From positions 6,448,001 through 6,512,000 of the forward strand of contig OZ004607.1 of the NCBI GenBank assembly GCA_963924565.1: a stretch of DNA of 64,000 bases, read 5' to 3'. Both the position numbers and the translations under genes were made by a program. The DNA comes from Ascidiella aspersa. Lineage: Eukaryota. A model generated the notes under the pieces. The model worked only from the letters and a program-made list of their open reading frames with translations, had not been told where the DNA came from and ran no database searches. Of this stretch, positions 10,455 to 61,752 are shown piece after piece. The stretch's first letter is position 1, and each line of letters opens with the position of its first letter.

Positions 10455-10897
10455 AAATTCGTTTGTAGCAACCAGGCGAGATTAGAACAGAACAAATCGT
10501 GTCCAGCAAAAAAAGCGAAAATTGGAACAGGAACTTGAATCATTCGATATCGAGCTGGTTTCTAATCCCAGAAGAAAAACACAAAAAAGCAAAAAAAAAA
10601 TTAAAAAAGGCACTCGTCGATGGAACAGGAACTTGAATCTTTCAAATAATTTCGAGATCGAATCGGTTTCTAATCCCAGCAGAACAACACAAATTTTGAT
10701 CAGAAAGAAAAAGCGAAAATCGATAAAATGCGCTCGTTTACGGAACAGTAACTTGAATAATTCGAGATCGAGCTGGTTTCTGATTCCAGCAGAAAAACGC
10801 AAATTGTGTCCAGAATAAAAAGCAAAATCGAAAAAAAACGCTATTATATGGAACAGGAACTTGAATGATTCGAGATCTATCCGGTTTCTAATCCCAG
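10455..10897. repeat. ~110-bp degenerate tandem repeat, about 4 copies, anchored on the stop codon of the second ODF3-like exon
   Basis: ggaacaggaacttgaat...ttcgagatc...ggtttctaatcccag at ~10523, ~10622, ~10742 and ~10850. Confidence 0.8.
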
Positions 10898-13474
10898 CCT
10901 CCGTCTACGATGAGTGGCGTAATGAACTCCGAGTGCCTGATGCCCATCGAAAACGAGCGACCCCTGTACAGCGACTTATACACACTTTCGGGGCTGTGCG
11001 CGCCCGGCCCTGGTTTCTTTGTACTGTCGCCGGGCATATAGCACCTCCCGGCCAACGAATACAGGGGCGCGCTTCGGCGGTACCGGCCCGGTGGAACCAC
11101 CTTGTACCCCGCCGGGCCAGGGGTGCGCGCCAGGTCGTCCGAGAAGCTCTGGCCCCTGGTCCGGCCGCTCAGGGTGTAGCTGGGGCTGGCGCGTTTATTC
11201 GGTACACGGCAGCCGAGCGCTGAAGGCAGCTTGTAGGCGTTGGGGGCCGGATTGGGGTCGACGCGTCTAAGGCGGGTCCTGGCCGACAGGGAGTACCTCG
11301 GGGCCCGACGTTCGTTAGGGGGATGCACCATCTCGTTACGGTAAGTTCCCGGGCCTGGAGTATTGAAGAGGTCTGCGAAAAGGTATAGCGGGCTGGTTAT
11401 CGACTATAGTTGCACGCGTAATATACTGTGTATTCTTCACCAGGTGAAAGGTTTCAATGCAAACAAGTAGACCTAACCCTAACCCTAGAAATATGAATTT
11501 CTTCATTATTATAGACAATTATCTTATTATTATTATAGCCTCGATAACTTCGTCATTTAATATAGATAGCTTAACACGTCTCATTTATTAAATAAATAAT
11601 ATTCCAAACTAAAGTATAAAATACATATTTTTACAGCCGTTTTAACTGTTTCTTTCGGTCGGGCTCATTAACAACCTTTAAAGACATGCAACAATCAGGC
11701 TTATAATACAAACTTGCCAGCAATGCAAGTATAGACAGTTATACCAAACAACGTTAGCGCTCGTTTTTTCGACAGGTACGTCATTATCTTTTAGAGGTCA
11801 ACTGGTACGTTATAAGGTAAAACGGGAAACACTGGAATAAGGTATAATCAAATACCAGTAGGCCTACCCGAGCGGCCAGCGCCGTCTTCTGGTGCCAAAG
11901 TAAAGTTTGAAGACCATTTCCTATAAGTTTAAGGATAAAAGTAGGAATTCGATTACAACTAGAGGGCTGTTCAAAATTGTTTAGTCTGATTCAATATATT
12001 TGATAGGTTATTTGGTGGCGGTTTTAGTGTCGAGCCTCGACAAGGGTGTAGTTAGAAATACGTCATTTGGGTGTGGCAAGTTTTTATTGAAAAATTAGAG
12101 CGGAATTCGTTACATCAGAAAATAGTCTTGTTAGTCAATGGTCGGCTTAAATTTAAAGTTTGCTTAGCTTTTTTAATGTGAATTCAAACAGATGTTTTTC
12201 GAAAAAAACTAAAAGCAAGTATTCCATACAGTGATTTGTTTAACGAAATTCCTAAAAATTAATGCAATTTTTGAAACAACACATATTTTTTTTTGACGGA
12301 TTGGGTTTGAGTTTGTATGGTATTAAATTGAATAACCTTAGTTTTCCAATTTTGTTATGATTTATGTCCATATCCACAAATGTTGCCTAACTATTCTATG
12401 AACAAAGGCCTGTAGAACGGTGCTTCGCAACCGGTTTCCCGCGAGATTATGCCAGGTGTACCGCGACGTTTCAGGAGGTGGTTTATTTCGTTTTTAAGCT
12501 ATTTTCAATTTTTTCAGCAAAACTAACAAAAAATTATACATCAAGATAGGTATTTTTATCTTATGCAATAATCCAAGTGTAACTTAATGAACTTATTTAA
12601 AACCTATCTTACGTTAATATAAAGCAATTTTTAAACTTTATACCAAAGTGGAAAGGGCGATTATCCATACGCTCAAAACCCATGAAATATTACTTATTGT
12701 AAATGTACTATTAACATTTTGTGATTGTTTAAATTAATCTTGGCTGCTGTCCTGAAAAAACAATTAGGCAAAAAAGTTCAAAGCACAATGTCAGGTTACA
12801 TTTTCCTAGTGTGCTAATAAGCCCTTAATGTTCTCTGATCCAGCATTTCAAGGAAGTAAATTTTTTGGGGATTTGGTACGCTTAAGATATTTTGAGAAAA
12901 CCGTAAAACCTCAAAATCAGAAAATAAAGGAATTTAAAACGTCAAATTGTTGGCGCCTTCGACGCGTTTAATCATAAATCGCTTATTTTGTTCTTGGCTG
13001 CCGAGGACATTTAGGCCTACTTATGTTTTCAATTGTCGATCGAAATATATTTCGCAGGTGTGCCGCCGAATTGTTTTAGCTCTGTTGGTTTGCCGCAAGT
13101 GAATACAAGTTACAGAAAACTTCTGTAGAACATCAGTTAACTCTCTGCTCGGCTTAAAACGAAATATTTTAATCCGGCTTGGAGCCATCGAAGTTGAACA
13201 CGCTTAAATATAGCAACCCTCCATTTCTAGCAGTTTAGCAAAAATCCATACTTAAATATTCTCAATGCTAGTCTATGGGTTTTTACAGTACAACATTAGG
13301 AATTATGATATTACAAGATTAACTATAATAACTAAGAGAAAATTAAGTAGCAGAAATTACTTGCTTTAGTTTATATAGATTAAATAGTGCAATTTAAATG
13401 TCCGTTAAATGTTTTAAAATGCATATTTTTTTGATTTAAAGACAAACTTACCTCGCCGGTTTGAAGTTGCTCAT
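10888..13474 (-). CDS. Short ODF3/SHIPPO-repeat paralogue, predicted 186 aa. Exons 13452-13474, 11868-11920, 10888-11372
   Basis: The last exon encodes PGPG-type SHIPPO repeats (TPGPGTY, TPGPAGY, KPGPGAH...GIRHSEF) and has a ttttcgcag acceptor. ATG..AG|gtaagt (phase 2) and ttatag|..G|gtaggc (phase 1) give MSNFKPARKWSSNFTLAPEDGAGRSDLFNTPGPG in frame. The last exon is high confidence; the two small exons are less certain. Confidence 0.7.
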
Positions 13475-14744: not shown

Positions 14745-17700
14745 CTAGTCGGTGACGTCAATGATCAGCGGCGTGATGAACTCCGAGTGCCGGATGCCCA
14801 TCGAGTGAACGGGAGCCTTCTTCTTATTGATGTACACGCTTTCCGGCGAGTGCGCGCCCGGGCCAGGCTTACGTGTGTTATCCCCTGGCATCACGTTGCG
14901 GCCGAGCATGGAGTAGAGCGGCTGCCGGTTACGGTAGATGTTCGGCGTCGTGGTGTTGTACTTGGCCGGGCCGGGCGTGCGCGCCAGGTCCTCGTCAAAG
15001 CCGTTGATCGTAGAGCGGCCGGTCATTGAGTAGGCCGGAAGCGCTCTTTTGTTGATGATCCTCGGACCACACAGCTGAGGCAGCGTGTACGCGTTTGCCG
15101 CCGGGTTTGAGTCGCGCTTGCGGAAGCGAGTACGCGCCGCCATCGAGTACCTGGGTGCGTGCCGCTCGCCCTGGGGGTGAACGCGGTGGTTGTCGTACGT
15201 GCCAGGGCCCGGAGGCCGGAAAAGATCTGCGGGGACGCGAGAGGTTGGGTATTTTTTAGGGCTGTCGTTGGTGAAGTGCTGCTGGTTTTATTTTACCTTG
15301 TATTTTGTCCTTGAGTGTATTGTAAAACGCCCTAAAACGCTTAACATTCCTAAAAAAAAGTCATTTTTGTTGAATATTGAATAGGCCAGAAAACTCGGGA
15401 GTTGGTTGGGCGGTTTTGGAACTGTCGTTTTTGCTGCTGGTGCTACTGGTTTATTTTACCATGTATTTCCTACTTAAGCGAATTGTAAAACGCTTGACAA
15501 TGCCACAAGATTTGATGCACTAGCATTTTAGTTGAATATTACAGGGGCCTGACACCCCGGGACTGTTTTAGGACTGTTTTTGCTGCTAGTGCTGCTGGTT
15601 TACTTTACCATGTATTTCGTATACTTGAGTGTATTGTAAAATGCCCTTAAACGATTAACAAAGCCACAAGATTTAAGGGGTGAGCGAGCAGTTTTGTTGT
15701 ATATTGAAGGGTTCAGAGAGCTCGGAGGTTGGTTGGGAAACTTTAAAATGATGTGCTACTCCTGTAGATCGGATTTGTCTATTCACAATTTATATATATT
15801 TTTAATTAAAAGACAACAGTGATGTTATATAAGGAGTTCGAAATGAAGAGATTCTCGACGACTAGAGAGAAACATTTTCCAAGTACTAGTTCTAACTGGG
15901 GTAGGCTAGAATAGGCTTGTAGGCAAGAAGAATTGGTGAAAATAAAGAGACTTTAAATTAAACGGCACAAGCAAAGAAGGCATAACAAGTAAAATTCAAC
16001 GCGGTTGAAGTTAAAAACACAACTAATTTATTTATTTCTTATATTCGCTTAATATGCAATAATATGCACTTGAGGGTTGCTTTTTAGGGTTGCTGTTGCC
16101 ATTTTGTTTTCAGACGTCCGAGTGTCCGTGTGACGTATATAGGGGAAAGCACGTCACGGGTGTGACGTAGCATTTATTTTCATGGTGTCACGTAACAATG
16201 GATGCACGCGACGTGGTCAACAAAACAAGGAAAGGTACCGCGTTCAAAAAGGCGAAAGTCGGAACCAGAAGAATGGAATACGAGAATTGGCGAGAAATGG
16301 CAGTTAGCTGTTAAGTACTAACGAACTATAATCCAGTTACTGCTACGAATCTAGAGTAGCTACGAATACTTTAATTTTTATAAGCCTACTGCCCAATGTA
16401 GACTAGAAGCGCGCACACTACTTTGCCTAAAGGCAATTAAAGAATTGGCTTTAAAATGGAAACCGATATTAGCGGGGTCTGGCATGGAAATCATTTGCAT
16501 GAACAGAGTTTTTGAACCTCAATATAGAAACTTAGTGTATTAGGAAGCAAAATGTCAGCCAAAATCGGCCTGTCAAATCACGACTATGTTGTAGATTTCC
16601 TTCTCTGTCCATGCAAATTCAATCGAAAAGTCTATTGGGTTACTCCGTTCTTGTTAAACTACATCGTTTACTACGTTAAATTTACATGCAGCTTTAATCT
16701 AACAGCGACTTACTTGGCTCCGGCTGTCTTGCCAGCATAGAATACTTAGGCTCGCCTTCCGGCCCACATCGTGTGAATCTAGGGTCGACGCGGTATTTCG
16801 GGCCAGGGCTGATGTCCTTGGAGAACACTGTGCACAAAAACACAGTTGTCTATTGTTTGTCTATTCGACTAAGCTATGGCCGCCTCGGCGCGAACGAAAT
16901 TGCGGTTAGGAGGCACGACGTGAAAACATGGAGGCCTGGTGTGTCTTGTTGTGAAAAGGCTGTTGAGTAATACACACTGAACAAGTTGCCTTTGAGAAAC
17001 AGAGCGATAAGACAACAAATAAAACCGGCTTGTCTTTATTTCGGTAACTCGCATTTGTTATCCGTAAAACTAGGCCCTTGAAATAGGCTTTTAAATCATG
17101 AAATAGAACCAAACCCGAACCTGAACTTTATGAAGCGGTTTTGGAATACTTTTACCCAAACCTTAACCGAACCTGAATCGTTGTTGACAAAATATGTTAA
17201 ATCTAACGAAACAGATTTTTTGAATGTAACGCCAACCTTAACCGAACCCGAAAAAAAAGATTCACTACAGTATGTAATTTGATGGGTCTGTAATGACGTG
17301 TTTGAATATTGCGTAGTTTTATCATGATTTCGGTTTAAAGGGGGTAAATACTAGGCGATAAAGATGCCAATAAAAGATAAACTTTTCGTTTACGCTATAT
17401 AAACTGTATATCCAACGATACCTGAGGTAACTGACAAAAAATCGTGATGAAGGCAACAAACATGACGGGATATAGATATGGCGGTATCTTTGCTGTCTTA
17501 AAAGTGGCGCATTTCGAATGATAAGTGGCATTTTTAATGTTTAGAAATGCCTTAAGTTACGGAAAAAGAATCTCAAGTAATTGTATGAACGGAAAGAGTT
17601 TCAGTGGGTATAGTTTACTGAAAGACATTTACATTAAACTCGAACCTTAACGTTATAAACCGGTTTTAAATATAACTTTGGTTAAAACAGTTTTTTTTTT

Positions 17701-25581: not shown

Positions 25582-26151
25582 ATGAACAGCTGCATTTTGA
25601 TTTTGTCCGTTTTGGTTCTTGTCGTCGCTTTTAGCGAGGCGGCCGTGCTGCAGAACCGAAACAAGAGGCAGATTTTTTACAACGGACCAACCGGCATCCA
25701 TGGTAATGGTGCCGCAAGTCTTGGATTAGGACTTGGAGGATTCCAAGCCCAGGCATTGGCCAACGCAGGACTTGGAATTCAAGGATTTGGTGGAGCCCAT
25801 GCCGCGCTTGGCGGAACTGCCTCGATCAATAAGGAAGGGTTAAATGCCGCCGTTCAAGGCCAGGCAGGTATCGGCATTAATCACTTCGCGGGTGTTGCCG
25901 CGAATGCAGGTGGGCAACTTGCGATCAATCAGCACGGAATAGGCGCCGCGGCTAACGCAAATCTTCAAGCAAACCTTGGACCAATTCAAGCAGGAGCTAA
26001 TCTCGGCGGCGTTGCTCAACTCGGACCAAATGGATTGCACGCCGGGCTTCAAGGTGGCTTCAGCCTTGGGGATGAGTTGGGGGCTGCAGAAGGCAGGTTC
26101 CTCGAAAAGGACGGACTTTTAAACCAATATTGGATCATCGGTGCTCCCTAA
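25582..26151 (+). CDS. Secreted Gly/Ala-rich precursor, copy 1 (189 aa, intact, C-terminal variant KDGLLNQYWIIGAP)
   Basis: ATG follows the splice acceptor; hydrophobic signal MNSCILILSVLVLVVAFSEA, then RNKR and a Gly/Ala-rich core; AATAAA at 26232. Confidence 0.92.
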   Translation: MNSCILILSVLVLVVAFSEAAVLQNRNKRQIFYNGPTGIHGNGAASLGLGLGGFQAQALANAGLGIQGFGGAHAALGGTASINKEGLNAAVQGQAGIGINHFAGVAANAGGQLAINQHGIGAAANANLQANLGPIQAGANLGGVAQLGPNGLHAGLQGGFSLGDELGAAEGRFLEKDGLLNQYWIIGAP

Positions 26152-28574: not shown

Positions 28575-29148
28575 TTAGCGAGCACCGATGGCCCAAATTG
28601 GAATTAGGAAATGATCTACGTCATTTTCGAGGAACCTGCCTTCTGCAGCCCCCAACTCATCCCCAAGGCTGAAGCCACCTTGAAGACCGGCGTGCAATCC
28701 ATTTGGTCCGAGCTGAGCAACGCCGCCGAGATTAGCTCCTGCTTGAATTGGTCCAAGGTTTGCTTGAAGATTTGCGTTAGCCGCGGCGCCTATTCCGTGC
28801 TGATTGATCGCAAGTTGCCCACCTGCATTCGCGGCAACACCCGCGAAGTGATTAATGCCGATACCTGCCTGGCCTTGAACGGCGGCATTTAACCCTTCCT
28901 TATTGATCGAGGCAGTTCCGCGAAGCGCGGCATGGGCTCCACCAAATCCTTGAATTCCAAGTCCTGCGTTGGCCAATGCCTGGGCTTGGAATCCTCCAGG
29001 TCCTAATCCAAGACTTGCGGCACCATTACCATGGATGCCGGTTGGTCCGTTAAAAAATCTGCCTTTTGTTTCGTTTCTGCAGCACGGCCGCCTCGCTAAA
29101 AGCGACGACAAGAACCAAAACGGACAAAATCAAAATGCAGCTGTTCAT
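28575..29148 (-). pseudogene. Array copy 2: a 2-bp deletion creates TAA after RNKRQIF; divergent C-terminus; exon 1 and promoter deleted
   Basis: ccgttaaaaaatctgcc at ~29047 versus ccgttgtaaaaaatctgcc in other copies; the intron is cut at ~29205 and joined to distal upstream sequence. Confidence 0.9.
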
Positions 29149-33114: not shown

Positions 33115-33684
33115 ATGAACAGCTGCATTTTGATTTTGTCCGTTTTGGTTCTTGTCGTCGCTTTTAGCGAGGCGGCCGTGCTGCAGAACCGAAACAAGAG
33201 GCAGATTTTTTACAACGGACCAACCGGCATCCATGGTAATGGTGCCGCAAGTCTTGGATTAGGACTTGGAGGATTCCAAGCCCAGGCATTGGCCAACGCA
33301 GGACTTGGAATTCAAGGATTTGGTGGAGCCCATGCCGCGCTTGGCGGAACTGCCTCGATCAATAAGGAAGGGTTAAATGCCGCCGTTCAAGGCCAGGCAG
33401 GTATCGGCATTAATCACTTAGCGGGTGTTGCCGCGAATGCAGGTGGGCAACTTGCGATCAATCAGCACGGAATAGGCGCCGCGGCTAACGCAAATCTTCA
33501 AGCAAACCTTGGACCAATTCAAGCAGGAGCTAATCTCGGCGGCGTTGCTCAACTCGGACCAAATGGATTGCACGCCGGGCTTCAAGGTGGCTTCAGCCTT
33601 GGGGATGAGTTGGGGGCTGCAGAAGGCAGGTTCCTTGAAAATGACGGAGTTTTTAACAAATATTGGATCGTCGGTGCTCCCTAA
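33115..33684 (+). CDS. Secreted Gly/Ala-rich precursor, copy 3 (189 aa, intact; NHL instead of NHF)
   Basis: ORF 33109..33684 with the ATG after the acceptor; donor at 32437/32438. Confidence 0.93.
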   Translation: MNSCILILSVLVLVVAFSEAAVLQNRNKRQIFYNGPTGIHGNGAASLGLGLGGFQAQALANAGLGIQGFGGAHAALGGTASINKEGLNAAVQGQAGIGINHLAGVAANAGGQLAINQHGIGAAANANLQANLGPIQAGANLGGVAQLGPNGLHAGLQGGFSLGDELGAAEGRFLENDGVFNKYWIVGAP

Positions 33685-36071: not shown

Positions 36072-36640
36072 TTAGGGAGCACCGATGATCCAATTTGAGT
36101 TAAAAACTCCGTCATTTTCGAGGAACCTGCCTTCTGCAGCCCTCAACTCATCCCCAAGGCTGAAGCAACCTTGAAGACCGGCGTGCAATCCATTTGGTCC
36201 GAGTTGAGCAACGCCGCCGAGATTAGCTCCTGCTTGAATTGGTCCAAGGTTTCCTTGAAGATTTGCGTTAGCTCCGACGCCTATTCCGTGCTGATTGATC
36301 GCAAGTTGCCCACCTGCATTCGCGGCAACACCTGCGAAGTGATTAATGCCGATACCTGCTTGGCCTTGAACGGCGGCATTTAACCCTTCCTTATTGATCG
36401 AGGCAGTTCCGCCAAGCGCGGCTTGGGCTCCACCAAATCCATGAATTCCAAGTCCTGCGTTGGCCAATGCCTGGGCTTGGAATCCTCCAGGTGCTAATCC
36501 AAGACTTGCGGACCATTACCATGGATGCCGGTTGGTCCGTTGTAAAAAATCTGCCTTTTGTTTCGTTTCTGCAGCACGGCCGCCTCGCTGAAAGCGACGA
36601 CAAGAACCAAAACGGACAAAATCAAAATGCAGCTGTTCAT
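36072..36640 (-). pseudogene. Array copy 4: 1-bp deletion at ~36511 causes a frameshift and early stop
   Basis: gacttgcggaccattacc versus gacttgcggcaccattacc; span 569 rather than 570 nt; promoter and intron intact. A single-base assembly error cannot be excluded. Confidence 0.8.
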
Positions 36641-39600: not shown

Positions 39601-42543
39601 GCTTCGCATTATGTACAAGTGTCATTGAAAGACAAATGGTTAGAAAAACAGTGAATAGCGCCAAATGTATTTGATAGTGGTTATAAAGAGCCCAAACAAC
39701 TTTTCTACTTTGTAAAACACATTGACTATATTGTTCACGACTTACTATTTTAAAAACGTTTGCAAGAATAAATAAAAATACGTCTTAGGTAAAAACACCA
39801 CAGTAATATTAACGATAGTAATATTGTCTAACTTAAGACAGTCATCAACGTATTTATAATTATACCCAAGTGTAACTTGTCGAATATAGTCAATAAAATT
39901 AATACGGGAATGTACATTAAGGCAGGTATTCTAAATGTGTGTGCACTATTCTTAGACAGGCGAAAACTTTTGCAAATCTTCACAAGTCAAAATTTTCTAT
40001 TTATCTTGAAATAAATAAAACTTCTTTCCAAGCGATAGGGCAGCCTACCACAGCTATATAGCCTACTATAACAATTTCAATTTTACAACATAGCGGACGT
40101 TTACTATACGCAAAAAAAACATTGTAATAAATAAAAAAAAGTTTGGCTCTTTTTGCCCCTGCACGCATTGTTAGTTTATCTTGCATGATGTCTCGAAAAA
40201 ACAATTTAAGAAAATAAAATAAAAAGTACAATATATAGGGGTAATAACCGCATGTTTCGGGTTTTGAGGCAGGGCTGCCGAGCCGTGCAAAAATAACCCG
40301 AGTCCGACTCCATCCACAAAAATGAATCCGAGTCCGAATTTCGAGTCCCGAGTGCGATTCTGGCCGATTGTGCGATTTCGATGAGTGCTGAGCCCGTCTC
40401 TGACTCAGCAATTTAAATAAAGTTACTGAGCACTGATACACACCGGCTGAAAATGGTTTACGATATTCCAGCATCATGCTTCGAAATGTTTGTCCTAATA
40501 ACATTACCTATCTATTGGCATGACAGAAATTAAAATTCATCCGAATTGGTCTTGTTCAATTTCAACCATAACCCTTTAGACATATTCATGACCTATTGCA
40601 TTTTCTAAGAAGTTTTCAACGTTTTAAAAATAAAATAAAAAGGAAGTGCCTTGAAGGATATTCTCCAATTACGCTGAACTGTGCGGATATTTTCTGTTTT
40701 TACTTTCTCTTGCAATTGCGCAAAAAATGACAAGAAAGTTTAGGTGCCAGTTTCCTTCTTATAAACACGTGTCAAAGGGGTTTAAAATGTGATCTGAGTT
40801 TTGTATCCACGTGCAAGGGTGTTTTCAGGGGGAAGGTATGTCCTCCAAACTATATTTTTTACCGATATTATTTAAATAAGCTCAAACACTTTTATAGCTT
40901 TGCGCGAATCTTTTAGGGTTTTGTACTTAGTATACTACCTTTTAATTATTTCGAGGATAATTTTTAGTACAGCTGCATTTGGGAATGTACAAACATTTAT
41001 CGTGTACCCAATGCCTTGCGTCTAGTTCTAACATAAACGTTTTGTCAATTTCAACCATCTGATCGCAATATTTTTGCGCTCACGCTTTATCCCTTTTCAA
41101 ATATATTCATTCGACCAAGTATAGTAGATGAACGAGATCGACCGGAAATATCATGACGTCACGTTATGACGTAACTTTCGACCCCTACGTTAAAACAACG
41201 CCGGGAAGATATTTGTACTCTAGCGTGGGTTTATTAGGTAGGTTATAATTTGAAAAAAATGTACAGAATATATCCGTTATTTTAAGCTTTTCAGGGTGAA
41301 AGAGTAGTGTGTTCCAAACGCTACAGTCTATGTTCCATAAAATGGCACAAATTATTAACTTTATGACACTTCTCTTCTGTTTTATTTTGCTATCGATTGT
41401 GGCACCAAGCTTTCGCTTGCCCAAATAGTTTTTTCGAAAAAATAGGGTTTATTTAATTACCAAAACCCCAGAAACGCTCATATTGGTTCTCTCACTGAAT
41501 TTAAAAGCAAATATATCTAATCAACTAAACCAAAAGATGATTATCGGTTTCTTAATATATCGGAATAATTAATCTTAATACAGTTTAGAGGCGATTTTTT
41601 GTAAAGCAACATTGCAAACCAGAAAGGTGGTAATGCTTATTGTTAATTGTAAAACCCGAATAATTTTGCCGGAAAAATATTCAACGTTATCTGCCACGTT
41701 TAAAAACAAACATCGTTGCGATACGACGAAGAAGTTAGGAACGATCGGTCTGTAAGTTTCGAGGAATTTTGACGTCCTAAACCACAACGCACCTCGCAAA
41801 ATGCTATATAAACGCGACGAAGCACGTCCCAAATCACACTTTGCATTCAACAAGCAATACTACAAGGTAAGTGATATTTAATTACAAACGTAAGCTTAAC
41901 TATCCTAGTTTTTGCGTCGCCGAAGACCTGCTGGTTTTGTTCCTCTGGAGCAACTTTTTAACGTCAGATCGCACCTGTGTATCTAAACACGTGGTGGCGC
42001 GCCTATAGCGCAACTTTTATGTATACCAGTATTTGGCTTGTACTGGCTGTAGATTTTGCTTTACATAGGCCTCGTAGTTGAATTATGGTCTTTAAAGTAC
42101 TGTGGGCCCAATAAGCTAATCCAAAGTATTAAGCAAAAATAGTAAACAATATATGTCGTACTTTTTTTCGTTGGCCCTCGGGCAGCGGTCGGGAAATGCT
42201 TCTTTTGTAATTTAAGCCATATTAATTTAGGACTGATGTGACCCCTGATAAATTAATACAAGTAGGTGTTAATGGATATAAAGGGGTTAGTCACATGGAT
42301 TACCAAATGTCTTGGTGCATTTATTTAGCAACCTAAAACTATTGGTAATTATTATTATTGGCTTGCATTACGTAAAAATACTCTGCATCTCCCTTTGTTG
42401 ATTAAAAATTTGTGATGGTAAAAAAGTAGGCGCCATGACTTTCTTTCCATCTGCAGTGTGTCTTGTTCAGTCTTATCAACAACAACCGACATTTCTTTCA
42501 TTTATATTTAGACATTTGACTTGAGCGAAAATTTTTTTTGCAG

Positions 42544-43113
42544 ATGAACAGCTGCATTTTGATTTTGTCCGTTTTGGTTCTTGTCGTCGCTTTTAGCGAG
42601 GCGGCCGTGCTGCAGAACCGAAACAAGAGGCAGATTTTTTACAACGGACCAACCGGCATCCATGGTAATGGTGCCGCAAGTCTTGGATTAGGACTTGGAG
42701 GATTCCAAGCCCAGGCATTGGCCAACGCAGGACTTGGAATTCAAGGATTTGGTGGAGCCCATGCCGCGCTTGGCGGAACTGCCTCGATCAATAAGGAAGG
42801 GTTAAATGCCGCCGTTCAAGGCCAGGCAGGTATCGGCATTAATCACTTCGCGGGTGTTGCCGCGAATGCAGGTGGGCAACTTGCGATCAATCAGCACGGA
42901 ATAGGCGCCGCGGCTAACGCAAATCTTCAAGCAAACCTTGGACCAATTCAAGCAGGAGCTAATCTCGGCGGCGTTGCTCAACTCGGACCAAATGGATTGC
43001 ATGCCGGGCTTCAAGGTGGCTTCAGCCTTGGGGATGAGTTGGGGGCTGCAGAAGGCAGGTTCCTTGAAAATGACGGAGTTTTTAACAAATATTGGATCGT
43101 CGGTGCTCCCTAA
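42544..43113 (+). CDS. Secreted Gly/Ala-rich precursor, copy 5 (189 aa, intact)
   Basis: ORF 42538..43113; donor at 41866/41867. Confidence 0.93.
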   Translation: MNSCILILSVLVLVVAFSEAAVLQNRNKRQIFYNGPTGIHGNGAASLGLGLGGFQAQALANAGLGIQGFGGAHAALGGTASINKEGLNAAVQGQAGIGINHFAGVAANAGGQLAINQHGIGAAANANLQANLGPIQAGANLGGVAQLGPNGLHAGLQGGFSLGDELGAAEGRFLENDGVFNKYWIVGAP

Positions 43114-45500
43114 AAAGTAGAAGCGATCATCTTTACAGCCTAATTGCAACAATAGTCATTCTCATGTTTACATTTGATGGTTATTTGTCATGGCGGTCAG
43201 AATAAAAGTTACATAAATGTACAAAACAACCATGTTAAGGTCAGCAAACTGTTTTAATCGCTCGAAAAACGATGTGACTGAACATATTCTTATACATTTT
43301 AGCAGTTAGATCAGTTCATCAACCAACCGATTTTATACTGTAAATTTAAGAAATTGGTGTATATACATATAGGCTAGAACCAGTGACCAAATTTGTTCTC
43401 GAGACCTCCTTTAAGATATTCCATAACTTACGCGAGACCCTATTATAGTAGATTACACGTAAACCAAAGGCAATTAGAATCATATTACACAAAACTAACT
43501 AAAATCAAGGTATAGCGTTTATTCGGGTTATTACGACTTGAATAGAAAAGTGCATTGACCGCTCGCAAAGTAACGAAAATAGGTTTATGGAAACTCGTAA
43601 TTAACCAAGCAATATAAGGATTGTTTTACTATTGTATTTCAAAGTATAAAGCAGGAGTCTTGACTTTTTTACCAGTACACTTTCGATTTGTCTGCAAGTA
43701 AGGTGTATCCCATTAGAATAATTATCCCTACTGTTCACCTAAGCCAGTGCTTTTCAACCTTTTTGCTGGAGTAGAATGCCATGGAAACATTTCACTGGCT
43801 CGAGGAACCCGAGTGCAATAATTTCACTGGCTCGAGGAACCCCAGTGCAATAAACACACCCCAATTAGCTACGCAATTTAGAAATTGCGGAACCCCTGGC
43901 CTGTACTAGCGGAACCCTTGGGTTCATCGGACCATGGTTGAAAACCACTGACCTAAGCAGTAGCAACAATTTCTATTAAAATGAATTCTCCAGGTCTAGG
44001 GCAGTGTTTCTTAATAAGGTGATTGGTTTACCCCAGGGTGAATAAATTTTTTTAAGGGTTGAACCAACCAAAAGGGGTGAATAAGGGTGAACGGTCAGAA
44101 CGTGAATGATAGCTTGCGAACAAGGCGGATATTCCGGGTGTTCAGTGAACAGGTGGGAATTACCAAAAACAAAATTAATTCTAAGTTTTTTCACAAGGAT
44201 GAATGGAATCTGTAGATTGATGCTAGGAGTAAACAAAACTAAAAAAGGTTTAAGAAACACTGCTCTAGGGTATGCCCACGTTTTGCGATACCGGATCAAA
44301 ATATGTAACAGCATTGTCCTACTTTAATACTTACGAGAAAAATAGAATATCACAAACCCATCAATAAAATATCACTTCCAAAAAATATCGTCTTATTTTA
44401 TATTTAAAACAGTTTAGACCAGGACCAGGAGTCCTAATCTTCTAAGTGACAGGAGTAAGCGAGAGAAATTTGCGCAGATACCCTAGAGCAGTGGTTCTTA
44501 AACTGTTTTTAGTTTTGTATACCCCTAGCATCGATCTCCAGATTCTATTAACCCTGATAAAAAAACTTAATTTAGTTTTTGGAAATTCTCACCTGTTCAC
44601 TAAACAGGTTGAACACCCGGAATACCACCCTGCTCGCAAGCTATCATCCATTTCTGACGGTTCACCCTTATTTACTCCTTTTGGTTGATTCACCCCTGCA
44701 AAATGTTATTCACCCGGGGTGGACCAATCACCTGATTAAGAAACACTGCCCTAGACCTGGAGAGTTTATTTAAATAGAATATAAATTGTTGCTAACACTT
44801 AGGTGAACAGTTGGGATAATTATTCTGATGGCATACACCTTACATGCAAACAAATCGAAAGTGTACTGGTAAAAAAGTTCAAGACTTCTGCTTTATACTT
44901 TGAAATACAATAGTAAAACAATCACTATATTGTTTGGTTAATTACGAGTTTCCATAAACCGATTTTCATTGTTACTTCACGAACGGCCAATACATTTTTC
45001 TATTCAAGTCGTAATGACCCGAATAAACGTTATACCTTGATTTTAGTTAGTTTTGTATAGTTTTGACGACATTCTTGGCAAAGTGAAACAATCCATTCAG
45101 ACAATTAATCGAACTGCCATTTTGAATATGATTCTAATTGCCTCTGGTTTACGTGTAATCTACTAAAATAGGGTCTCGGGTAAGTTATGGAATATCTTAA
45201 AAAGAGGTCTCGAGAACAAATATTTTGGCCACTGGTCTAGCTTACACACATATACACCAATTTCTAGAACTTAATGTATAAAATCGGTTGGTTGATAAAC
45301 TGATCTAACTGCTAAAATGTATAAGATTCTGTTCAGTCACATCGTTTTTCGAGCGATTAAAACAGTTTGCTGACCTTAACATGGTTGTTTTATACATTTC
45401 TGTAACTTTTATTCTAACCGCCATGACAAATAACAATCAAATGTAAACATGTGAATGACTATTGTTGCGATTAGGCTGTAAAGATGATCGCTTCTACTTT

Positions 45501-46003
45501 TTAGGGAGCACCGATGATCCAATTTGAGTTAAAAACTCCGTCATTTTCGAGGAACCTGCCTTCTGCAGCCCCCAACTCATCCCCAAGGCTGAAGCCACCT
45601 TGAACACCGGTGTGGAATCCATTTGGTCCGAGTTGAGCAACGCCGCCGAGATTAGCTCCTGCTTTAATTGGTCCAAGGTTTGCTTGACGATTTGCGTTAG
45701 CCGCGGCGCCTATTCCATTGTGATTGATCGCAAGTTGCCCACCTGCCCTTCCTTATTGATCGAGGCAGTTCCGCCAAGCGCGGCTTGGGCTCCACCAAAT
45801 CCATGAATTCCAAGTCCTGCGTTGGCCAATGCCTGGGCTTGGAATCCTCCAGGTCCTAATTCAAGACTTGCGGCACCATTACCATGAATGCCGGTTGGTC
45901 CGTTGTAAAAAATCTGCCTTTTGTTTCGTTTCTGCAGCACGGCCGCCTCGCTAAAAGCGACGACAAGAACCAAAACGGACAAAATCAAAATGCAGCTGTT
46001 CAT
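45501..46003 (-). pseudogene. Array copy 6: 67-bp internal deletion and frameshift (97-aa truncated product); ~160-bp upstream deletion at ~46857
   Basis: cacctgc|ccttccttattg junction at ~45746; span 503 nt; gtggcag|gtttagttg junction upstream of the TATA box. Confidence 0.88.
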
Positions 46004-49000: not shown

Positions 49001-51749
49001 AACACCACAGTAATATTAACGATAGTAATATTGTCTAACTTAAGACAGTCATCAACGTATTTATAATTATACCCAAGTGTAACTTGTCGAATATAGTCAA
49101 TAAAATTAATACGGGAATGTACATTAAGGCAGGTATTCTAAATGTGTGTGCACTATTCTTAGACAGGCGAAAACTTTTGCAAATCTTCACAAGTCAAAAT
49201 TTTCTATTTATCTTGAAATAAATAAAACTTCTTTCCAAGCGATAGGGTAGCCTACCACAGCTATATAGCCTACTATAACAATTTCAATTTTACAACATAG
49301 CGGACGTTTACTATACGCAAAAAAAACATTGTAATAAATAAAAAAAAGTTTGGCTCTTTTTGCCCCTGCACGCATTGTTAGTTTATCTTGCATGATGTCT
49401 CGAAAAAACAATTTAAGAAAATAAAATAAAAAGTACAATATATAGGGGTAATAACCGCATGTTTCGGGTTTTGAGGCAGGGCTGCCGAGCCGTGCAAAAA
49501 TAACCCGAGTCCGACTCCATCCACAAAAATGAATCCGAGTCCGAATTTCGAGTCCCGAGTGCGATTCTGGCCGATTGTGCGATTTCGATGAGTGCTGAGC
49601 CCGTCTCTGACTCAGCAATTTAAATAAAGTTACTGAGCACTGATACACACCGGCTGAAAACGGTTTACGATATTCCAGCATCATGCTTCGAAATGTTTGT
49701 CCTAATAACATTACCTATCTATTGGCATGACAGAAATTAAAATTCATCCGAATTGGTCTTGTTCAATTTCAACCATAACCCTTTAGACATATTCATGACC
49801 TATTGCATTTTCTAAGAAGTTTTCAACGTTTTAAAAATAAAATAAAAAGGAAGTGCCTTGAAGGATATTCTCCAATTACGCTGAACTGTGCGGATATTTT
49901 CTGTTTTTACTTTCTCTTGCAATTGCGCAAAAAATGACAAGAAAGTTTAGGTGCCAGTTTCCTTCTTATAAACACGTGTCAAAGGGGTTTAAAATGTGAT
50001 CTGAGTTTTGTATCCACGTGCAAGGGTGTTTTCAGGGGGAAGGTATGTCCTCCAAACTATATTTTTTACCGATATTATTTAAATAAGCTCAAACACTTTT
50101 ATAGCTTTGCGCGAATCTTTTAGGGTTTTGTACTTAGTATACTACCTTTTAATTATTTCGAGGATAATTTTTAGTACAGCTGCATTTGGGAATGTACAAA
50201 CATTTATCGTGTACCCAATGCCTTGCGTCTAGTTCTAACATAAACGTTTTGTCAATTTCAACCATCTGATCGCAATATTTTTGCGCTCACGCTTTATCCC
50301 TTTTCAAATATATTCATTCGACCAAGTATAGTAGATGAACGAGTTCGACCGGAAATATCATGACTTCACGTTATGACGTAACTTTCGACCCCTACGTTAA
50401 AACGACGCCGGGAAGATATTTGTACTCTAGCGTGGGTTTATTAGGTAGGTTATAATTTGAAAAAAATGTACAGAATATATCCATTATTTTAAGCTTTTCC
50501 GGGTGAAAGAGTAGTGTGTTCCAAACGCTTCAGTCTATGCTCCATAAAATGGCTCAAATTATTAACTTTATGACACTTCTCTTCTGTTTTATTTTGGTAT
50601 CGATTGTGGGACCAAGCTTTCGCTTGCCCAAATAGTATTTTCGAAAAAATAGGCTTTATTTAATTACCAAAACCCCAGAAACGCTCATATTGGTTCTTTC
50701 ACTGCATTTAAAAGCAAATATACCTAATCAATTAAACCAAAAGATGATTATCGGTTTCTTAATATATCGGAATAATTAATCTTAATACAGTTTAGAGGCG
50801 ATTTTTGTAAAGCAACATTGCAAAACACACAGGTGGTAATGCTTATTGTTAATTGTAAAACCCGAAAAATTTTGCCGGGAAAATATTCAACGTTATCTGC
50901 CACGTTTAAAAACAAACATCGTTGCGATACGACGAAGAAGTTAGGAACGATCGGTCTGTAAGTTTCGAGGAATTTTGACGTCCTAAACCACAACGCACCT
51001 CGCAAAATGCTATATAAACGCGACGAAGCACGTCCCAAATCACACTTTGCATTCAACAAGCAATACTACAAGGTAAGTGATATTTAATTACAAACGTAAG
51101 CTTAACTATCCTAGTTTTTGCGTCGCCGAAGACCTGCTGGTTTTGTTCCTCTGGAGCAACTTTTTAACGTCAGATCGCACCTGTGTATCTAAACACGTGG
51201 TGGCGCGCCTATAGCGCAACTTTTATTTATACCAGTATTTGGCTTGTACTGGCTGTAGATTTTGCTTTACATAGGCCTCGTAGTTGAATTATGGTCTTTA
51301 AAGTACTGTGGGCCCAATAAGCTAATCCAAAGTATTCAGCAAAAATAGTAAACAATATATGTCGTACTTTTTTTCGTTGGCCCTCGGGCAGCGGTCGGGA
51401 AATGCTTCTTTTGTAATTTAAGCCATATTAATTTAGGACTGATGTGACCCCTGATAAATTAATACAAGTAGGTGTTAATGGATATAAAGGGGTTAGTCAC
51501 ATGGATTACCAAATGTCTTGGTGCATTTATTTAGCAACCTAAAACTATTGGTAATTATTATTATTGGCTTGCATTACGTAAAAATACTCTGCATCTCCCT
51601 TTGTTGATTAAAAATTTGTGATGGTAAAAAAGTAGGCGCCATGACTTTCTTTCCATCTGCAGTGTGTCTTGTTCAGTCTTATCAACAACAACCGACATTT
51701 CTTTCATTTATATTTAGACATTTGACTTGAGCGAAAATTTTTTTTGCAG

Positions 51750-52319
51750 ATGAACAGCTGCATTTTGATTTTGTCCGTTTTGGTTCTTGTCGTCGCTTTT
51801 AGCGAGGCGGCCGTGCTGCAGAACCGAAACAAGAGGCAGATTTTTTACAACGGACCAACCGGCATCCATGGTAATGGTGCCGCAAGTCTTGGATTAGGAC
51901 TTGGAGGATTCCAAGCCCAGGCATTGGCCAACGCAGGACTTGGAATTCAAGGATTTGGTGGAGCCCATGCCGCGCTTGGCGGAACTGCCTCGATCAATAA
52001 GGAAGGGTTAAATGCCGCCGTTCAAGGCCAGGCAGGTATCGGCATTAATCACTTCGCGGGTGTTGCCGCGAATGCAGGTGGGCAACTTGCGATCAATCAG
52101 CACGGAATAGGCGCCGCGGCTAACGCAAATCTTCAAGCAAACCTTGGACCAATTCAAGCAGGAGCTAATCTCGGCGGCGTTGCTCAACTCGGACCAAATG
52201 GATTGCACGCCGGGCTTCAAGGTGGCTTCAGCCTTGGGGATGAGTTGGGGGCTGCAGAAGGCAGGTTCCTTGAAAATGACGGAGTTTTTAACAAATATTG
52301 GATCGTCGGTGCTCCCTAA
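51750..52319 (+). CDS. Secreted Gly/Ala-rich precursor, copy 7 (189 aa, intact)
   Basis: ORF 51744..52319; donor at 51072/51073. Confidence 0.93.
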   Translation: MNSCILILSVLVLVVAFSEAAVLQNRNKRQIFYNGPTGIHGNGAASLGLGLGGFQAQALANAGLGIQGFGGAHAALGGTASINKEGLNAAVQGQAGIGINHFAGVAANAGGQLAINQHGIGAAANANLQANLGPIQAGANLGGVAQLGPNGLHAGLQGGFSLGDELGAAEGRFLENDGVFNKYWIVGAP

Positions 52320-54705: not shown

Positions 54706-55275
54706 TTAGGGAGCACCGATGATCCAATTTGAGTTAAAAACTCCGTCATTTTCGAGGAACCTGCCTTCTGCAGCCCTCAACTCATCCCCAAGGCTGAAGC
54801 CACCTTGAAGACCGGCGTGCAATCCATTTGGTCCGAGTTGAGCAACGCCGCCGAGATTAGCTCCTGCTTGAATTGGTCCAAGGTTTCCTTGAAGATTTGC
54901 GTTAGCTCCGACGCCTATTCCGTGCTGATTGATCGCAAGTTGCCCACCTGCATTCGCGGCAACACCTGCGAAGTGATTAATGCCGATACCTGCTTGGCCT
55001 TGAACGGCGGCATTTAACCCTTCCTTATTGATCGAGGCAGTTCCGCCAAGCGCGGCTTGGGCTCCACCAAATCCATGAATTCCAAGTCCTGCGTTGGCCA
55101 ATGCCTGGGCTTGGAATCCTCCAGGTGCTAATCCAAGACTTGCGGCACCATTACCATGGATGCCGGTTGGTCCGTTGTAAAAAATCTGCCTTTTGTTTCG
55201 TTTCTGCAGCACGGCCGCCTCGCTGAAAGCGACGACAAGAACCAAAACGGACAAAATCAAAATGCAGCTGTTCAT
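54706..55275 (-). CDS. Secreted Gly/Ala-rich precursor, copy 8 (189 aa; the only intact - copy; variant isoform)
   Basis: ORF 54706..55281; differences include QKRNKR, LAPGG, IHG, AQA, VGANA, GNLG, ELRA and FNSNWII. Confidence 0.9.
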   Translation of the reverse strand: MNSCILILSVLVLVVAFSEAAVLQKRNKRQIFYNGPTGIHGNGAASLGLAPGGFQAQALANAGLGIHGFGGAQAALGGTASINKEGLNAAVQGQAGIGINHFAGVAANAGGQLAINQHGIGVGANANLQGNLGPIQAGANLGGVAQLGPNGLHAGLQGGFSLGDELRAAEGRFLENDGVFNSNWIIGAP

Positions 55276-58200: not shown

Positions 58201-61182
58201 CTTTTTGGGCGAGACCATCTACATTACTTTTTCTATATTTGCTTCGCATTATGTACAAGTGTCATTGAAAGACAAATGGTTAGAAAAACAGTGAATAGCG
58301 CCAAATGTATTTGATAGTGGTTATAAAGAGCCCAAACAACTTCTCTACTTTGTAAAACACATTGACTATATTGTTCACGACTTACTATTTTAAAAACGTT
58401 TGCAAGAATAAATAAAAATACGTCTTAGGTAAAAACACCACAGTAATATTAACGATAGTAATATTGTCTAACTTAAGACAGTCATCAACGTATTTATAAT
58501 TATACCCAAGTGTAACTTGTCGAATATAGTCAATAAAATTAATACGGGAATGTACATTAAGGCAGGTATTCTAAATGTGTGTGCACTATTCTTAGACAGG
58601 CGAAAACTTTTGCAAATCTTCACAAGTCAAAATTTTCTATTTATCTTGAAATAAATAAAACTTCTTTCCAAGCGATAGGGTAGCCTACCACAGCTATATA
58701 GCCTACTATAACAATTTCAATTTTACAACATAGCGGACGTTTACTATACGCAAAAAAAACATTGTAATAAATAAAAAAAAGTTTGGCTCTTTTTGCCCCT
58801 GCACGCATTGTTAGTTTATCTTGCATGATGTCTCGAAAAAACAATTTAAGAAAATAAAATAAAAAGTACAATATATAGGGGTAATAACCGCATGTTTCGG
58901 GTTTTGAGGCAGGGCTGCCGAGCCGTGCAAAAATAACCCGAGTCCGACTCCATCCACAAAAATGAATCCGAGTCCGAATTTCGAGTCCCGAGTGCGATTC
59001 TGGCCGATTGTGCGATTTCGATGAGTGCTGAGCCCGTCTCTGACTCAGCAATTTAAATAAAGTTACTGAGCACTGATACACACCGGCTGAAAACGGTTTA
59101 CGATATTCCAGCATCATGCTTCGAAATGTTTGTCCTAATAACATTACCTATCTATTGGCATGACAGAAATTAAAATTCATCCGAATTGGTCTTGTTCAAT
59201 TTCAACCATAACCCTTTAGACATATTCATGACCTATTGCATTTTCTAAGAAGTTTTCAACGTTTTAAAAATAAAATAAAAAGGAAGTGCCTTGAAGGATA
59301 TTCTCCAATTACGCTGAACTGTGCGGATATTTTCTGTTTTTACTTTCTCTTGCAATTGCGCAAAAAATGACAAGAAAGTTTAGGTGCCAGTTTCCTTCTT
59401 ATAAACACGTGTCAAAGGGGTTTAAAATGTGATCTGAGTTTTGTATCCACGTGCAAGGGTGTTTTCAGGGGGAAGGTATGTCCTCCAAACTATATTTTTT
59501 ACCGATATTATTTAAATAAGCTCAAACACTTTTATAGCTTTGCGCGAATCTTTTAGGGTTTTGTACTTAGTATACTACCTTTTAATTATTTCGAGGATAA
59601 TTTTTAGTACAGCTGCATTTGGGAATGTACAAACATTTATCGTGTACCCAATGCCTTGCGTCTAGTTCTAACATAAACGTTTTGTCAATTTCAACCATCT
59701 GATCGCAATATTTTTGCGCTCACGCTTTATCCCTTTTCAAATATATTCATTCGACCAAGTATAGTAGATGAACGAGTTCGACCGGAAATATCATGACGTC
59801 ACGTTATGACGTAACTTTCGACCCCTACGTTAAAACAACGCCGGGAAGATATTTGTACTCTAGCGTGGATTTATTAGGTAGGTTATAATTTGAAAAAAAT
59901 GTACAGAATATATCCATTATTTTAAGCTTTTCCGGGTGAAAGAGTAGTGTGTTCCAAACGCTTCAGTCTATGCTCCATAAAATGGCTCAAATTATTAACT
60001 TTATGACACTTCTCTTCTGTTTTATTTTGCTATCGATTGTGGGACCAAGCTTTCGCTTGCCCAAATAGTATTTTCGAAAAAATAGGCTTTATTTAATTAC
60101 CAAAACCCCAGAAACGCTCATATTGGTTCTTTCACTGCATTTAAAAGCAAATATACCTAATCATTTAAACCAAAAGATGATTATCGGTTTCTTAATATAT
60201 CGGAATAATTAATCTTAATACAGTTTAGAGGCGATTTTTGTAAAGCAACATTGCAAAACACACAGGTGGTAATGCTTATTGTTAATTGTAAAACCCGAAA
60301 AATTTTGCCGGGAAAATATTCAACGTTATCTGCCACGTTTAAAAACAAACATCGTTGCGATACGACGAAGAAGTTAGGAACGATCGGTCTGTAAGTTTCG
60401 AGGAATTTTGACGTCCTAAACCACAACGCACCTCGCAAAATGCTATATAAACGCGACGAAGCACGTCCCAAATCACACTTTGCATTCAACAAGCAATACC
60501 ACAAGGTAAGTGATATTTAATTACAAACGTAAGCTTAACTATCCTAGTTTTTGCGTCGCCGAAGACCTGCTGGTTTTGTTCCTCTGGAGCAACTTTTTAA
60601 CGTCAGATCGCACCTGTGTATCTAAACACGTGGTGGCGCGCCTATAGCGCAACTTTTATGTATACCAGTATTTGGCTTGTACTGGCTGTAGATTTTGCTT
60701 TACATAGGCCTCGTAGTTGAATTATGGTCTTTAAAGTACTGTGGGCCCAATAAGCTAATCCAAAGTATTAAGCAAAAATAGTAAACAATATATGTCGTAC
60801 TTTTTTTCGTTGGCCCTCGGGCAGCGGTCGGGAAATGCTTCTTTTGTAATTTAAGCCATATTAATTTAGGACTGATGTGACCCCTGATAAATTAATACAA
60901 GTAGGTGTTAATGGATATAAAGGGGTTAGTCACATGGATTACCAAATGTCTTGGTGCATTTATTTAGCAACCTAAAACTATTGGTAATTATTATTATTGG
61001 CTTGCATTACGTAAAAATACTCTGCATCTCCCTTTATTGATTAAAAATTTGTGATGGTAAAAAAGTAGGCGCCATGACTTTCTTTCCATCTGCAGTGTGT
61101 CTTGTTCAGTCTTATCAACAACAACCGACATTTCTTTCATTTATATTTAGACATTTGACTTGAGCGAAAATTTTTTTTGCAG

Positions 61183-61752
61183 ATGAACAGCTGCATTTTG
61201 ATTTTGTCCGTTTTGGTTCTTGTCGTCGCTTTTAGCGAGGCGGCCGTGCTGCAGAACCGAAACAAGAGGCAGATTTTTTACAACGGACCAACCGGCATCC
61301 ATGGTAATGGTGCCGCAAGTCTTGGATTAGGACTTGGAGGATTCCAAGCCCAGGCATTGGCCAACGCAGGACTTGGAATTCAAGGATTTGGTGGAGCCCA
61401 TGCCGCGCTTGGCGGAACTGCCTCGATCAATAAGGAAGGGTTAAATGCCGCCGTTCAAGGCCAGGCAGGTATCGGCATTAATCACTTCGCGGGTGTTGCC
61501 GCGAATGCAGGTGGGCAACTTGCGATCAATCAGCACGGAATAGGCGCCGCGGCTAACGCAAATCTTCAAGCAAACCTTGGACCAATTCAAGCAGGAGCTA
61601 ATCTCGGCGGCGTTGCTCAACTCGGACCAAATGGATTGCACGCCGGGCTTCAAGGTGGCTTCAGCCTTGGGGATGAGTTGGGGGCTGCAGAAGGCAGGTT
61701 CCTTGAAAATGACGGCGTTTTTAACAAATATTGGATCGTCGGTGCTCCCTAA
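61183..61752 (+). CDS. Secreted Gly/Ala-rich precursor, copy 9 (189 aa, intact)
   Basis: ORF 61177..61752; donor at 60505/60506. Confidence 0.93.
   Translation: MNSCILILSVLVLVVAFSEAAVLQNRNKRQIFYNGPTGIHGNGAASLGLGLGGFQAQALANAGLGIQGFGGAHAALGGTASINKEGLNAAVQGQAGIGINHFAGVAANAGGQLAINQHGIGAAANANLQANLGPIQAGANLGGVAQLGPNGLHAGLQGGFSLGDELGAAEGRFLENDGVFNKYWIVGAP

Follow-up and report, generated by a model that had tools for sequence, protein, structure and literature searches.

Described systems

The CsgA subunit of curli is small, secreted and uncharged and consists of strand-turn repeats rich in Gly, Ala, Asn and Gln, and the OmpA and OmpX barrels have a girdle of aromatic residues at either end and, on one side, long loops. 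Mallada egg-stalk silk is named as a cross-β silk in a passage of PMC5099703. Attacins are described in passages of PMC10690985 as Cys-free pre-pro-peptides with 14-22% Gly and a net charge of -3 to +10; for one attacin, the same passages report an amphipathic antiparallel sheet predicted by AlphaFold2 and a measured disruption of the outer membrane. A trimeric barrel has been predicted for attacins; PMC12940664 stresses that the barrel is unproven, and the relevant parts of PMC10690985 and PMC12940664 describe these proteins as rich in charged residues. In ascidians, the precursors of styelins and clavanins are processed just before a D or DD that leads into an anionic tail (a section of PMC7387483). 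Both groups of peptides are amidated, and the clavanins are His-rich and pH-dependent, according to a portion of PMC10608444.

Gene structure and precursor layout

The window analysed here is a 64,000-nucleotide stretch of Ascidiella aspersa DNA (contig OZ004607.1, 6448001-6512000). The gene under study is an open reading frame at 42544-43113 on the plus strand that encodes 189 residues, and the region singled out by the first-pass annotation (42631-43035) corresponds to residues 30-164. The following features were read from the sequence unless RNA reads are named.

41807-41812, plus strand: TATA box; the promoter and exon-1 block is kept in nine of the ten copies of the gene
41848-41866, plus strand: 3' end of non-coding exon 1, from nine RNA reads of run X7 with a loose end before 42542; GT donor at 41867
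41867-42543, plus strand: intron of 677 nt ending directly 5' of the ATG (GT to polypyrimidine-CAG), its splicing seen in reads
42544-42603, plus strand: putative signal peptide, about residues 1-20 (hydrophobic core, then small-x-small; site placed by eye)
42604-42630, plus strand: short basic propeptide ending in RNKR (furin-type R-x-K-R) and followed by Gln; cleavage and pyroglutamate formation are presumed
42631-43032, plus strand: mature core Q1-G134, 12.5 kDa
43033-43113, plus strand: acidic tail of 26 residues, starting from Asp after Gly, and stop codon
43201-43206, plus strand: AATAAA polyadenylation signal

The precursor is composed of a hydrophobic leader, a propeptide with the RNKR|Q site, a Gly/Ala-rich core that begins with Gln and an acidic tail that begins with Asp. 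A comparison of the copies found the RNKR|Q site in all ten. The core contains 25% Gly (24-25%), 20% Ala and 19% Asn plus Gln, and its net charge is 0, with one Lys and one Glu as the two charged residues in 134. It has five Phe, five His and a single Tyr, no Cys or Trp, and no internal basic sites. Its C-terminal boundary reads Gly-Asp-Glu, and the tail that follows has a net charge of -3. From this layout the protein is likely secreted and cut by furin. Gly134 is a possible amide donor, and by analogy with the precursors treated in part of PMC7387483 the acidic tail is possibly a cleaved pro-piece.

In RNA run X7, which was chosen by its species label, nine reads contain exon-1 letters directly 5' of the ATG exon and the placed reads are of a single polarity, indicating that genes of this family are transcribed and their transcripts spliced. 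Altogether 19 of 7,793,684 RNA records of this run were placed on the gene, which corresponds to a low level in that run. Matches in the promoter to consensus patterns (one RUNX-like, one GATA and one CRE half-site) are presumptive and carry no evidential weight. The κB-like promoter patterns were defined after inspection of the sequence and are not counted as evidence.

Several other features were noted around the gene. On the minus strand, 10888-11331 and 14745-15143 are two tandem CIMAP1/ODF3-like SHIPPO-repeat exons of apparently paralogous genes; for one SHIPPO-repeat exon, the best named matches among the best 120 of 188 come from Clavelina lepadiformis (68%) and Styela clava (67%). A GC-rich open frame of 336 residues at 6677-7687 on the plus strand has no Pfam match above the cut-off and is likely to be one large exon of an adjacent gene. 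Upstream of the window, at L005 5429-5776, lies an exon that we take to resemble cytosolic carboxypeptidase. The 216-bp element at 43740-43955 is bounded by terminal inverted repeats of 20 nt, contains a direct repeat of 32 nt and looks like a small non-autonomous DNA transposon.

Repeat and strand periodicity

The first-pass annotation had proposed a hidden repeat of about 33 residues in the mature protein, with turn-like motifs about every 16 residues. The best ungapped self-match of the core occurs at lag 15 (score 92, z 10.1), followed by lag 33 (81, z 9.1) and lag 65 (56, z 6.3). The best score was reached by none of 5000 plain shuffles and by one of 5000 parity-preserving shuffles, and by 0, 1 and 4 of 5000 block shuffles with blocks of 2, 4 and 8 residues, respectively. 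The internal repeat is thus significant, as had been suggested. Its four segments, starting at 20, 53, 86 and 118, align exactly as annotated, and the turn motifs GPTG, NKEG, NQHG, GPNG, QGF, NHF and GP are all present. The interval of about 16 residues between turns holds as a mean, but the actual spacing is 15, 17 or 18 and lag 16 gives no self-match signal (z -0.9). Pro at the first turn of the minus-strand copies was confirmed in five of five (GPGG in two, APGG in three), only two of which are intact genes.

Strand starts are spaced by 15, 18, 15, 18, 15, 15 and 17 residues. To hold this layout fixed, residues were shuffled within the classes strand-end, mid-strand, polar-face, link and turn-Gly. 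Under this class shuffle the signal at lag 33 was no longer significant (z 1.4, 263 of 3000), whereas those at lag 15 (3 of 3000) and lag 65 (16 of 3000) remained. The two halves of the core align at 34% identity with one gap, and the same shuffle leaves this alignment at z 2.2 (69 of 3000). Since lag 33 fades when the strand layout is fixed, the 33-residue period is a hairpin of 15 + 18 residues, and the basic unit is better read as a single strand with its turn (15 or 18 residues) than as a separately duplicated 33-mer. The predicted strands are listed below with their positions in the mature protein.

42658-42690, plus strand: strand 1 (10-20), from segmentation and half-fold model
42703-42741, plus strand: strand 2 (25-37), from segmentation and half-fold model
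42757-42789, plus strand: strand 3 (43-53), from segmentation and half-fold model
42802-42840, plus strand: strand 4 (58-70), from segmentation and half-fold model
42856-42888, plus strand: strand 5 (76-86), from segmentation; aligns with strand 1
42901-42939, plus strand: strand 6 (91-103), from segmentation and half alignment
42946-42984, plus strand: strand 7 (106-118), from segmentation and half alignment
42997-43029, plus strand: strand 8 (123-133), from segmentation and half alignment

Hand segmentation divided the core into eight stretches, each 11 or 13 residues long, with Gly/Pro/Asn links of 2-5 residues between them. With this division, face A contains no polar residue among 52, face B contains 24 polar residues among 44, all of them uncharged, and 15 of the 16 strand ends are I, L, F or V. 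Face A includes 20 Ala and 7 Gly, and Ala or Gly occupy 26 of the 36 positions in its middle, so that large residues lie at the strand ends and small ones mid-strand; the Phe residues are located mostly along one edge. Because this first division was made by hand, it was redone by a dynamic-programming search applied equally to shuffled sequences. The automatic segmentation returned the same eight strands, three of them slightly longer (11-15 residues), with z 5.7 and none of 3000 shuffles as good; its apolar face has one polar residue in 55, matched by one of 3000 shuffles. The hydrophobic moment is elevated at 170 degrees (z 4.2, 0 of 1000) and equals chance at 100 degrees (z 0.0).

Predicted fold and structural likeness

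A β-meander of about eight strands, forming a barrel or an amyloid-like sheet, had also been proposed, with AlphaFold and Foldseek among the suggested checks. From the single sequence of the 160-residue mature chain, AlphaFold2 gave a helical model of low confidence (pLDDT 43.1). A self-alignment of five rows (A2), made of the first half against the second half and paralogue halves, gave four long strands (4-17, 20-33, 36-50 and 53-64) for the first 66 of the 160 residues. This model has a pLDDT of 74.1 and a pTM of 0.46, with four of five models at 65.9 or above, and was run with no control fold. Its two-residue loops fall at the predicted turns, from which antiparallel pairing of the strands is inferred. 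Homodimer prediction scored 0.00 in both of two runs; the alignment was unused and the controls were unfolded, making this evidence neither way.

When the half model was overlaid on 48161 solved chains, the top four rows were pore-state hairpins of RCD-1 (Z 7.7, rmsd 2.8, 66 residues aligned), C5b8 (7.5, 4.2, 66) and two gasdermins (Z 7.3 and 7.0), spanning 63-66 aligned residues and rmsd 2.8-4.2 as a group. The fifth row was a soluble pigment-binding protein (Z 6.4, rmsd 4.5, 61 aligned). All Z scores are below 8, in the range of common arrangements, and therefore point to a long four-stranded sheet and not to kinship, so the likeness is geometric only. A Foldseek search of PDB and viral models with the half model yielded nothing at E≤0.001. 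Taking together the moment, the automatic segmentation and the four modelled strands, the proposed eight-strand meander gains support from the models, and the core is probably an antiparallel sheet of eight strands, apolar on one face and polar on the other.

The ten-copy array

Genome searches of the 308.6-Mb assembly detected ten copies of the gene, all at one locus, five on each strand and seven of them intact. Plus copies start at 25582, 33115, 42544, 51750 and 61183, and minus copies at 29148, 36640, 46003, 55275 and just beyond the window. Apart from the gene described above, the copies are as follows.

25582-26151, plus strand: intact copy with a different tail
28575-29148, minus strand: broken copy, frameshift near the mature start, without the promoter and exon-1 block
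33115-33684, plus strand: intact copy
36072-36640, minus strand: broken copy, frameshift in strand 1
45501-46003, minus strand: broken copy, 67-nt internal deletion
51750-52319, plus strand: intact copy
54706-55275, minus strand: intact copy, protein 93.7% identical
61183-61752, plus strand: intact copy
L001 708-139, minus strand: tenth copy, intact, just past the window

The three broken copies, with two short frameshifts and one 67-nt deletion, are all on the minus strand. Coding DNA is 95-100% identical among the ten copies, and orientation alternates in units of 7.5-9.4 kb with palindromic junctions. Some assembly error in the copy number is possible, but the distinct lesions in the units speak against it. 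The array extends over 24568-64000 and L001 1-3631 and is palindromic at both the head-to-head and tail-to-tail junctions; between 43113 and 45501 the junction arms are 84-96% complementary. These palindromic junctions suggest that the array grew by successive inverted duplications. The copies fall into two homogenised classes, one on each strand. The head-to-head spacers contain a 167-aa open reading frame on the minus strand (40001-40504, 49208-49711 and 58641-59144) that has no Pfam match above the cut-off and is probably non-coding.

Variation between copies is higher in the tail (pN 0.085-0.119) than in the core (0-0.023). All seven substitutions that distinguish the cores of intact plus copies from those of intact minus copies preserve the two-face pattern. 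The core pN/pS values of 0.023/0.039 are based on 7 and 4 changes, making the selection test underpowered and no demonstration of purifying selection. Within the tail, at 43076-43099, clustered changes were observed in copies 25582 and 29148, and in the contig of run X1 a one-base insertion is compensated by a one-base deletion within this segment, indicating that the tail tolerates change.

Relatives and a putative diverged transcript

Homologue searches, all of which are weakened by the low complexity of the core, returned no relative. Pfam gave no family for the entire protein or its core (E≤10), nor for the halves and tail (E≤1); there were no hits at E≤0.01 among 1827 word-sharing candidates from word-indexed proteins, none among 8000 proteins (longer ones only) scored with alignment A2, and none in four exact look-ups. 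None of 395 pattern matches in metagenome contigs was confirmed, PDB sequences matched only at E≥0.21, and recognition in the ESM Atlas was low (best 0.80, no named match). Two matches among 1.84 billion representatives were set aside, since each was a sum of weak matches to a long repeat protein; one of these two proteins has Ig_7/SprB domains. No description of such an ascidian protein was found in the open-access literature searched, and passages of PMC4904370 and PMC13518417 contributed nothing on it.

At the DNA level, six public runs under four organism labels contain part of the sequence, none of them listed as RNA; of the three that were aligned, one of another organism label has a 302-nt piece with 22 differences and two gaps. 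Together with the protein searches, this divergent piece indicates that the family reaches close relatives at most. On its sequence, the protein appears to represent a new orphan family without a detectable homologue.

Read depth in run X7 is 15 over the signal and propeptide part, compared to 1.4-1.7 over 42688-42879. Five reads that carry the leader and propeptide leave the reference at 42626 and continue into sequence that resembles a diverged mature N-terminus. The drop in depth and these five reads suggest a relative that shares the leader but differs in its mature part, as is known for families of defence peptides. The species' own genome assembly contains no match to a 24-nt pattern taken from the diverged RNA loose end. 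A weak leader-like match on another contig (C2, E 0.285) was rejected, as it lies in an ATG-poor frame and has no repeat core.

Functional interpretation

Our main reading, with a probability of roughly 0.42, is a host-defence protein, attacin-like but unrelated to attacins, that forms a membrane barrel or pore by closure of its sheet. The precursor would be cut after RNKR and perhaps also before the acidic tail, and the released 12.5-kDa core would be largely unfolded in water. On a membrane, the Ala/Leu/Ile/Gly face would turn to the lipid and the Gly/Gln/Asn/His face to the lumen, and the sheet could close as a monomeric eight-stranded barrel or, likelier for leak, as an oligomer. Low pH would charge the five His. 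The outcome would be insertion into microbial membranes, defending the animal.

The strict alternation of two faces, the uncharged polar face and the I/L/F/V strand ends would all fit a membrane-active protein, and strands of 11-13 residues are about one bilayer thick when tilted. The overlay of the half model on pore-state hairpins is consistent with it as a geometric likeness only. By analogy, the precursor layout matches that of defence peptides, and the diverged transcript that shares the leader suggests the pattern of a defence-peptide family. We also counted in its favour that a core with one Tyr, one Lys and no Cys has few handles for cross-linking. On the other side, a net charge of 0 leaves no obvious LPS-binding patch, and face A, with its many Ala and Gly and without a Trp/Tyr girdle, would make a weak lipid-facing surface. 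The β model covers 66 of 160 residues at a modest pTM and the single-sequence model is helical, and copies that are 96-100% identical in coding DNA fit dosage rather than an arms race. The Z scores below 8, the empty Foldseek search, the mere 19 placed RNA records and the failure to find the diverged relative in this assembly also weigh against it. A more specific version of the membrane-active reading appears doubtful: a chordate secreted transmembrane β-barrel made from a 15-18-residue strand-turn repeat with no head domain, that is, a stem-only pore former of OmpA/OmpX size, unrelated to attacins, MACPF and gasdermins, uncharged, perhaps acid-switched and palindromically amplified.

The uncharged core, the apolar face that is half Ala/Gly, the missing girdle and the undiversified copies are the same features that favour a structural or coating protein, the main rival and nearly as likely. 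Meanders or β-serpentines would stack so that Ala faces meet each other and Gln/Asn/Gly faces do likewise, and would build a cross-β fibre or amphipathic film at the tunic surface, in a larval or egg coat, in an adhesive or in a feeding net, and the propeptide and acidic tail would prevent early assembly. The Gly, Ala and Asn+Gln content of the nearly uncharged core agrees with such a material; the middle of face A is fit for silk-like close packing, and a set of ten near-identical copies would be suited to production in bulk. Part of PMC3390340 describes tunicate matrices as containing many secreted orphan proteins that have been duplicated, and low-complexity amyloid-like cements are known in barnacles from a passage of PMC5099703. 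However, the size of 12.5-15 kDa, the furin-type site and the Gly-Asp boundary recall bioactive peptides, Tyr, Lys, Ser and Cys for cross-linking are scarce, no Pfam family matched, the curlin repeat included, and strand length is uniformly that of a bilayer.

A soluble protein with its apolar face inward, either a barrel or a two-layer sandwich, whose Ala/Gly-lined cavity carries lipid, pigment or lipid A, is quite unlikely. The large strand-end and small mid-strand residues of face A would line such a cavity, and the pigment-binding protein in the fifth row of the overlay is in line with it, but the exterior of Gly, Gln, Asn and Ala with only two charged residues would be poorly soluble, and no lipocalin- or avidin-type Pfam match was found. 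Least probable is a low-complexity, disordered or helical Gly/Ala-rich secreted protein or short-peptide precursor whose strand pattern reflects repeat history: it would accord with the low-confidence helices, the low ESM Atlas recognition and the few changes behind the core pN/pS, but the helical moment is at chance against z 4.2 for the β moment, the core is free of internal basic sites, and two faces and turn glycines persist over eight otherwise diverged units.

If the protein is membrane-active, it would represent an independent chordate origin of an attacin-style β-sheet defence protein, as well as an unusually regular, small and uncharged natural model for how a secreted chain becomes a membrane barrel with neither chaperone nor head domain. 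If it forms a fibre or film, it would provide a defined 12.5-kDa unit of tunicate extracellular material that is easy to express.

Comparison with known systems

Like the attacin/diptericin G-domains (PF03768, PF03769), which passages of PMC10690985 and PMC12940664 describe as Cys-free Gly-rich pre-pro-proteins in tandem clusters, the ascidian protein has furin-type processing (a predicted cut at RNKR|Q) and an amphipathic antiparallel sheet (predicted, with its first half modelled). Its 24-25% Gly is slightly above the attacin range. In contrast to these proteins, its core is almost uncharged (two charged residues in 134) and Ala-rich, with eight regular strands on links of 2-5 residues and an acidic C-terminal tail, and it is from a chordate. 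No Attacin_N or Attacin_C Pfam match was obtained, and a genome search with PF03769 was empty, its control being equally silent.

The styelins and clavanins share with it an ascidian secreted precursor and a C-terminal acidic piece starting at Asp (section of PMC7387483), but they are cationic helices of 23-32 residues, whereas the present core is neutral, β-periodic and about 133 residues long and follows a furin-type propeptide. The helix feature of these peptides is absent from it, with the 100-degree moment at z 0.0, a net charge of 0 and 133 residues.

With the OmpA/OmpX barrels the core would share eight amphipathic strands of bilayer length, as judged from its residues; unlike them it lacks Trp, has one Tyr and five Phe mostly on one edge, and its links are short (2-5 residues). 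With respect to a closed barrel, the 66-residue half is the part modelled with confidence, at a best Z of 7.7. The half model overlays the pore-state hairpins of MACPF/gasdermin stems (Z 7.0-7.7, within the range of common arrangements), although the ascidian mature chain is strands and turns only, without the soluble globular head domain that in those proteins oligomerises ahead of insertion. Neither OmpA/OmpX nor MACPF/gasdermin proteins gave a Pfam or PDB sequence match to it. CsgA and the cross-β silks are likewise small, secreted, Gly/Ala/Asn/Gln-rich strand-turn repeats, from which the ascidian protein differs in its 15/18 period, longer strands, strictly apolar face and lack of a Pfam match. 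On the features tested, it therefore falls outside the attacin, styelin/clavanin, outer-membrane-barrel, MACPF/gasdermin and curlin families; by analogy, it may nonetheless work like an attacin.
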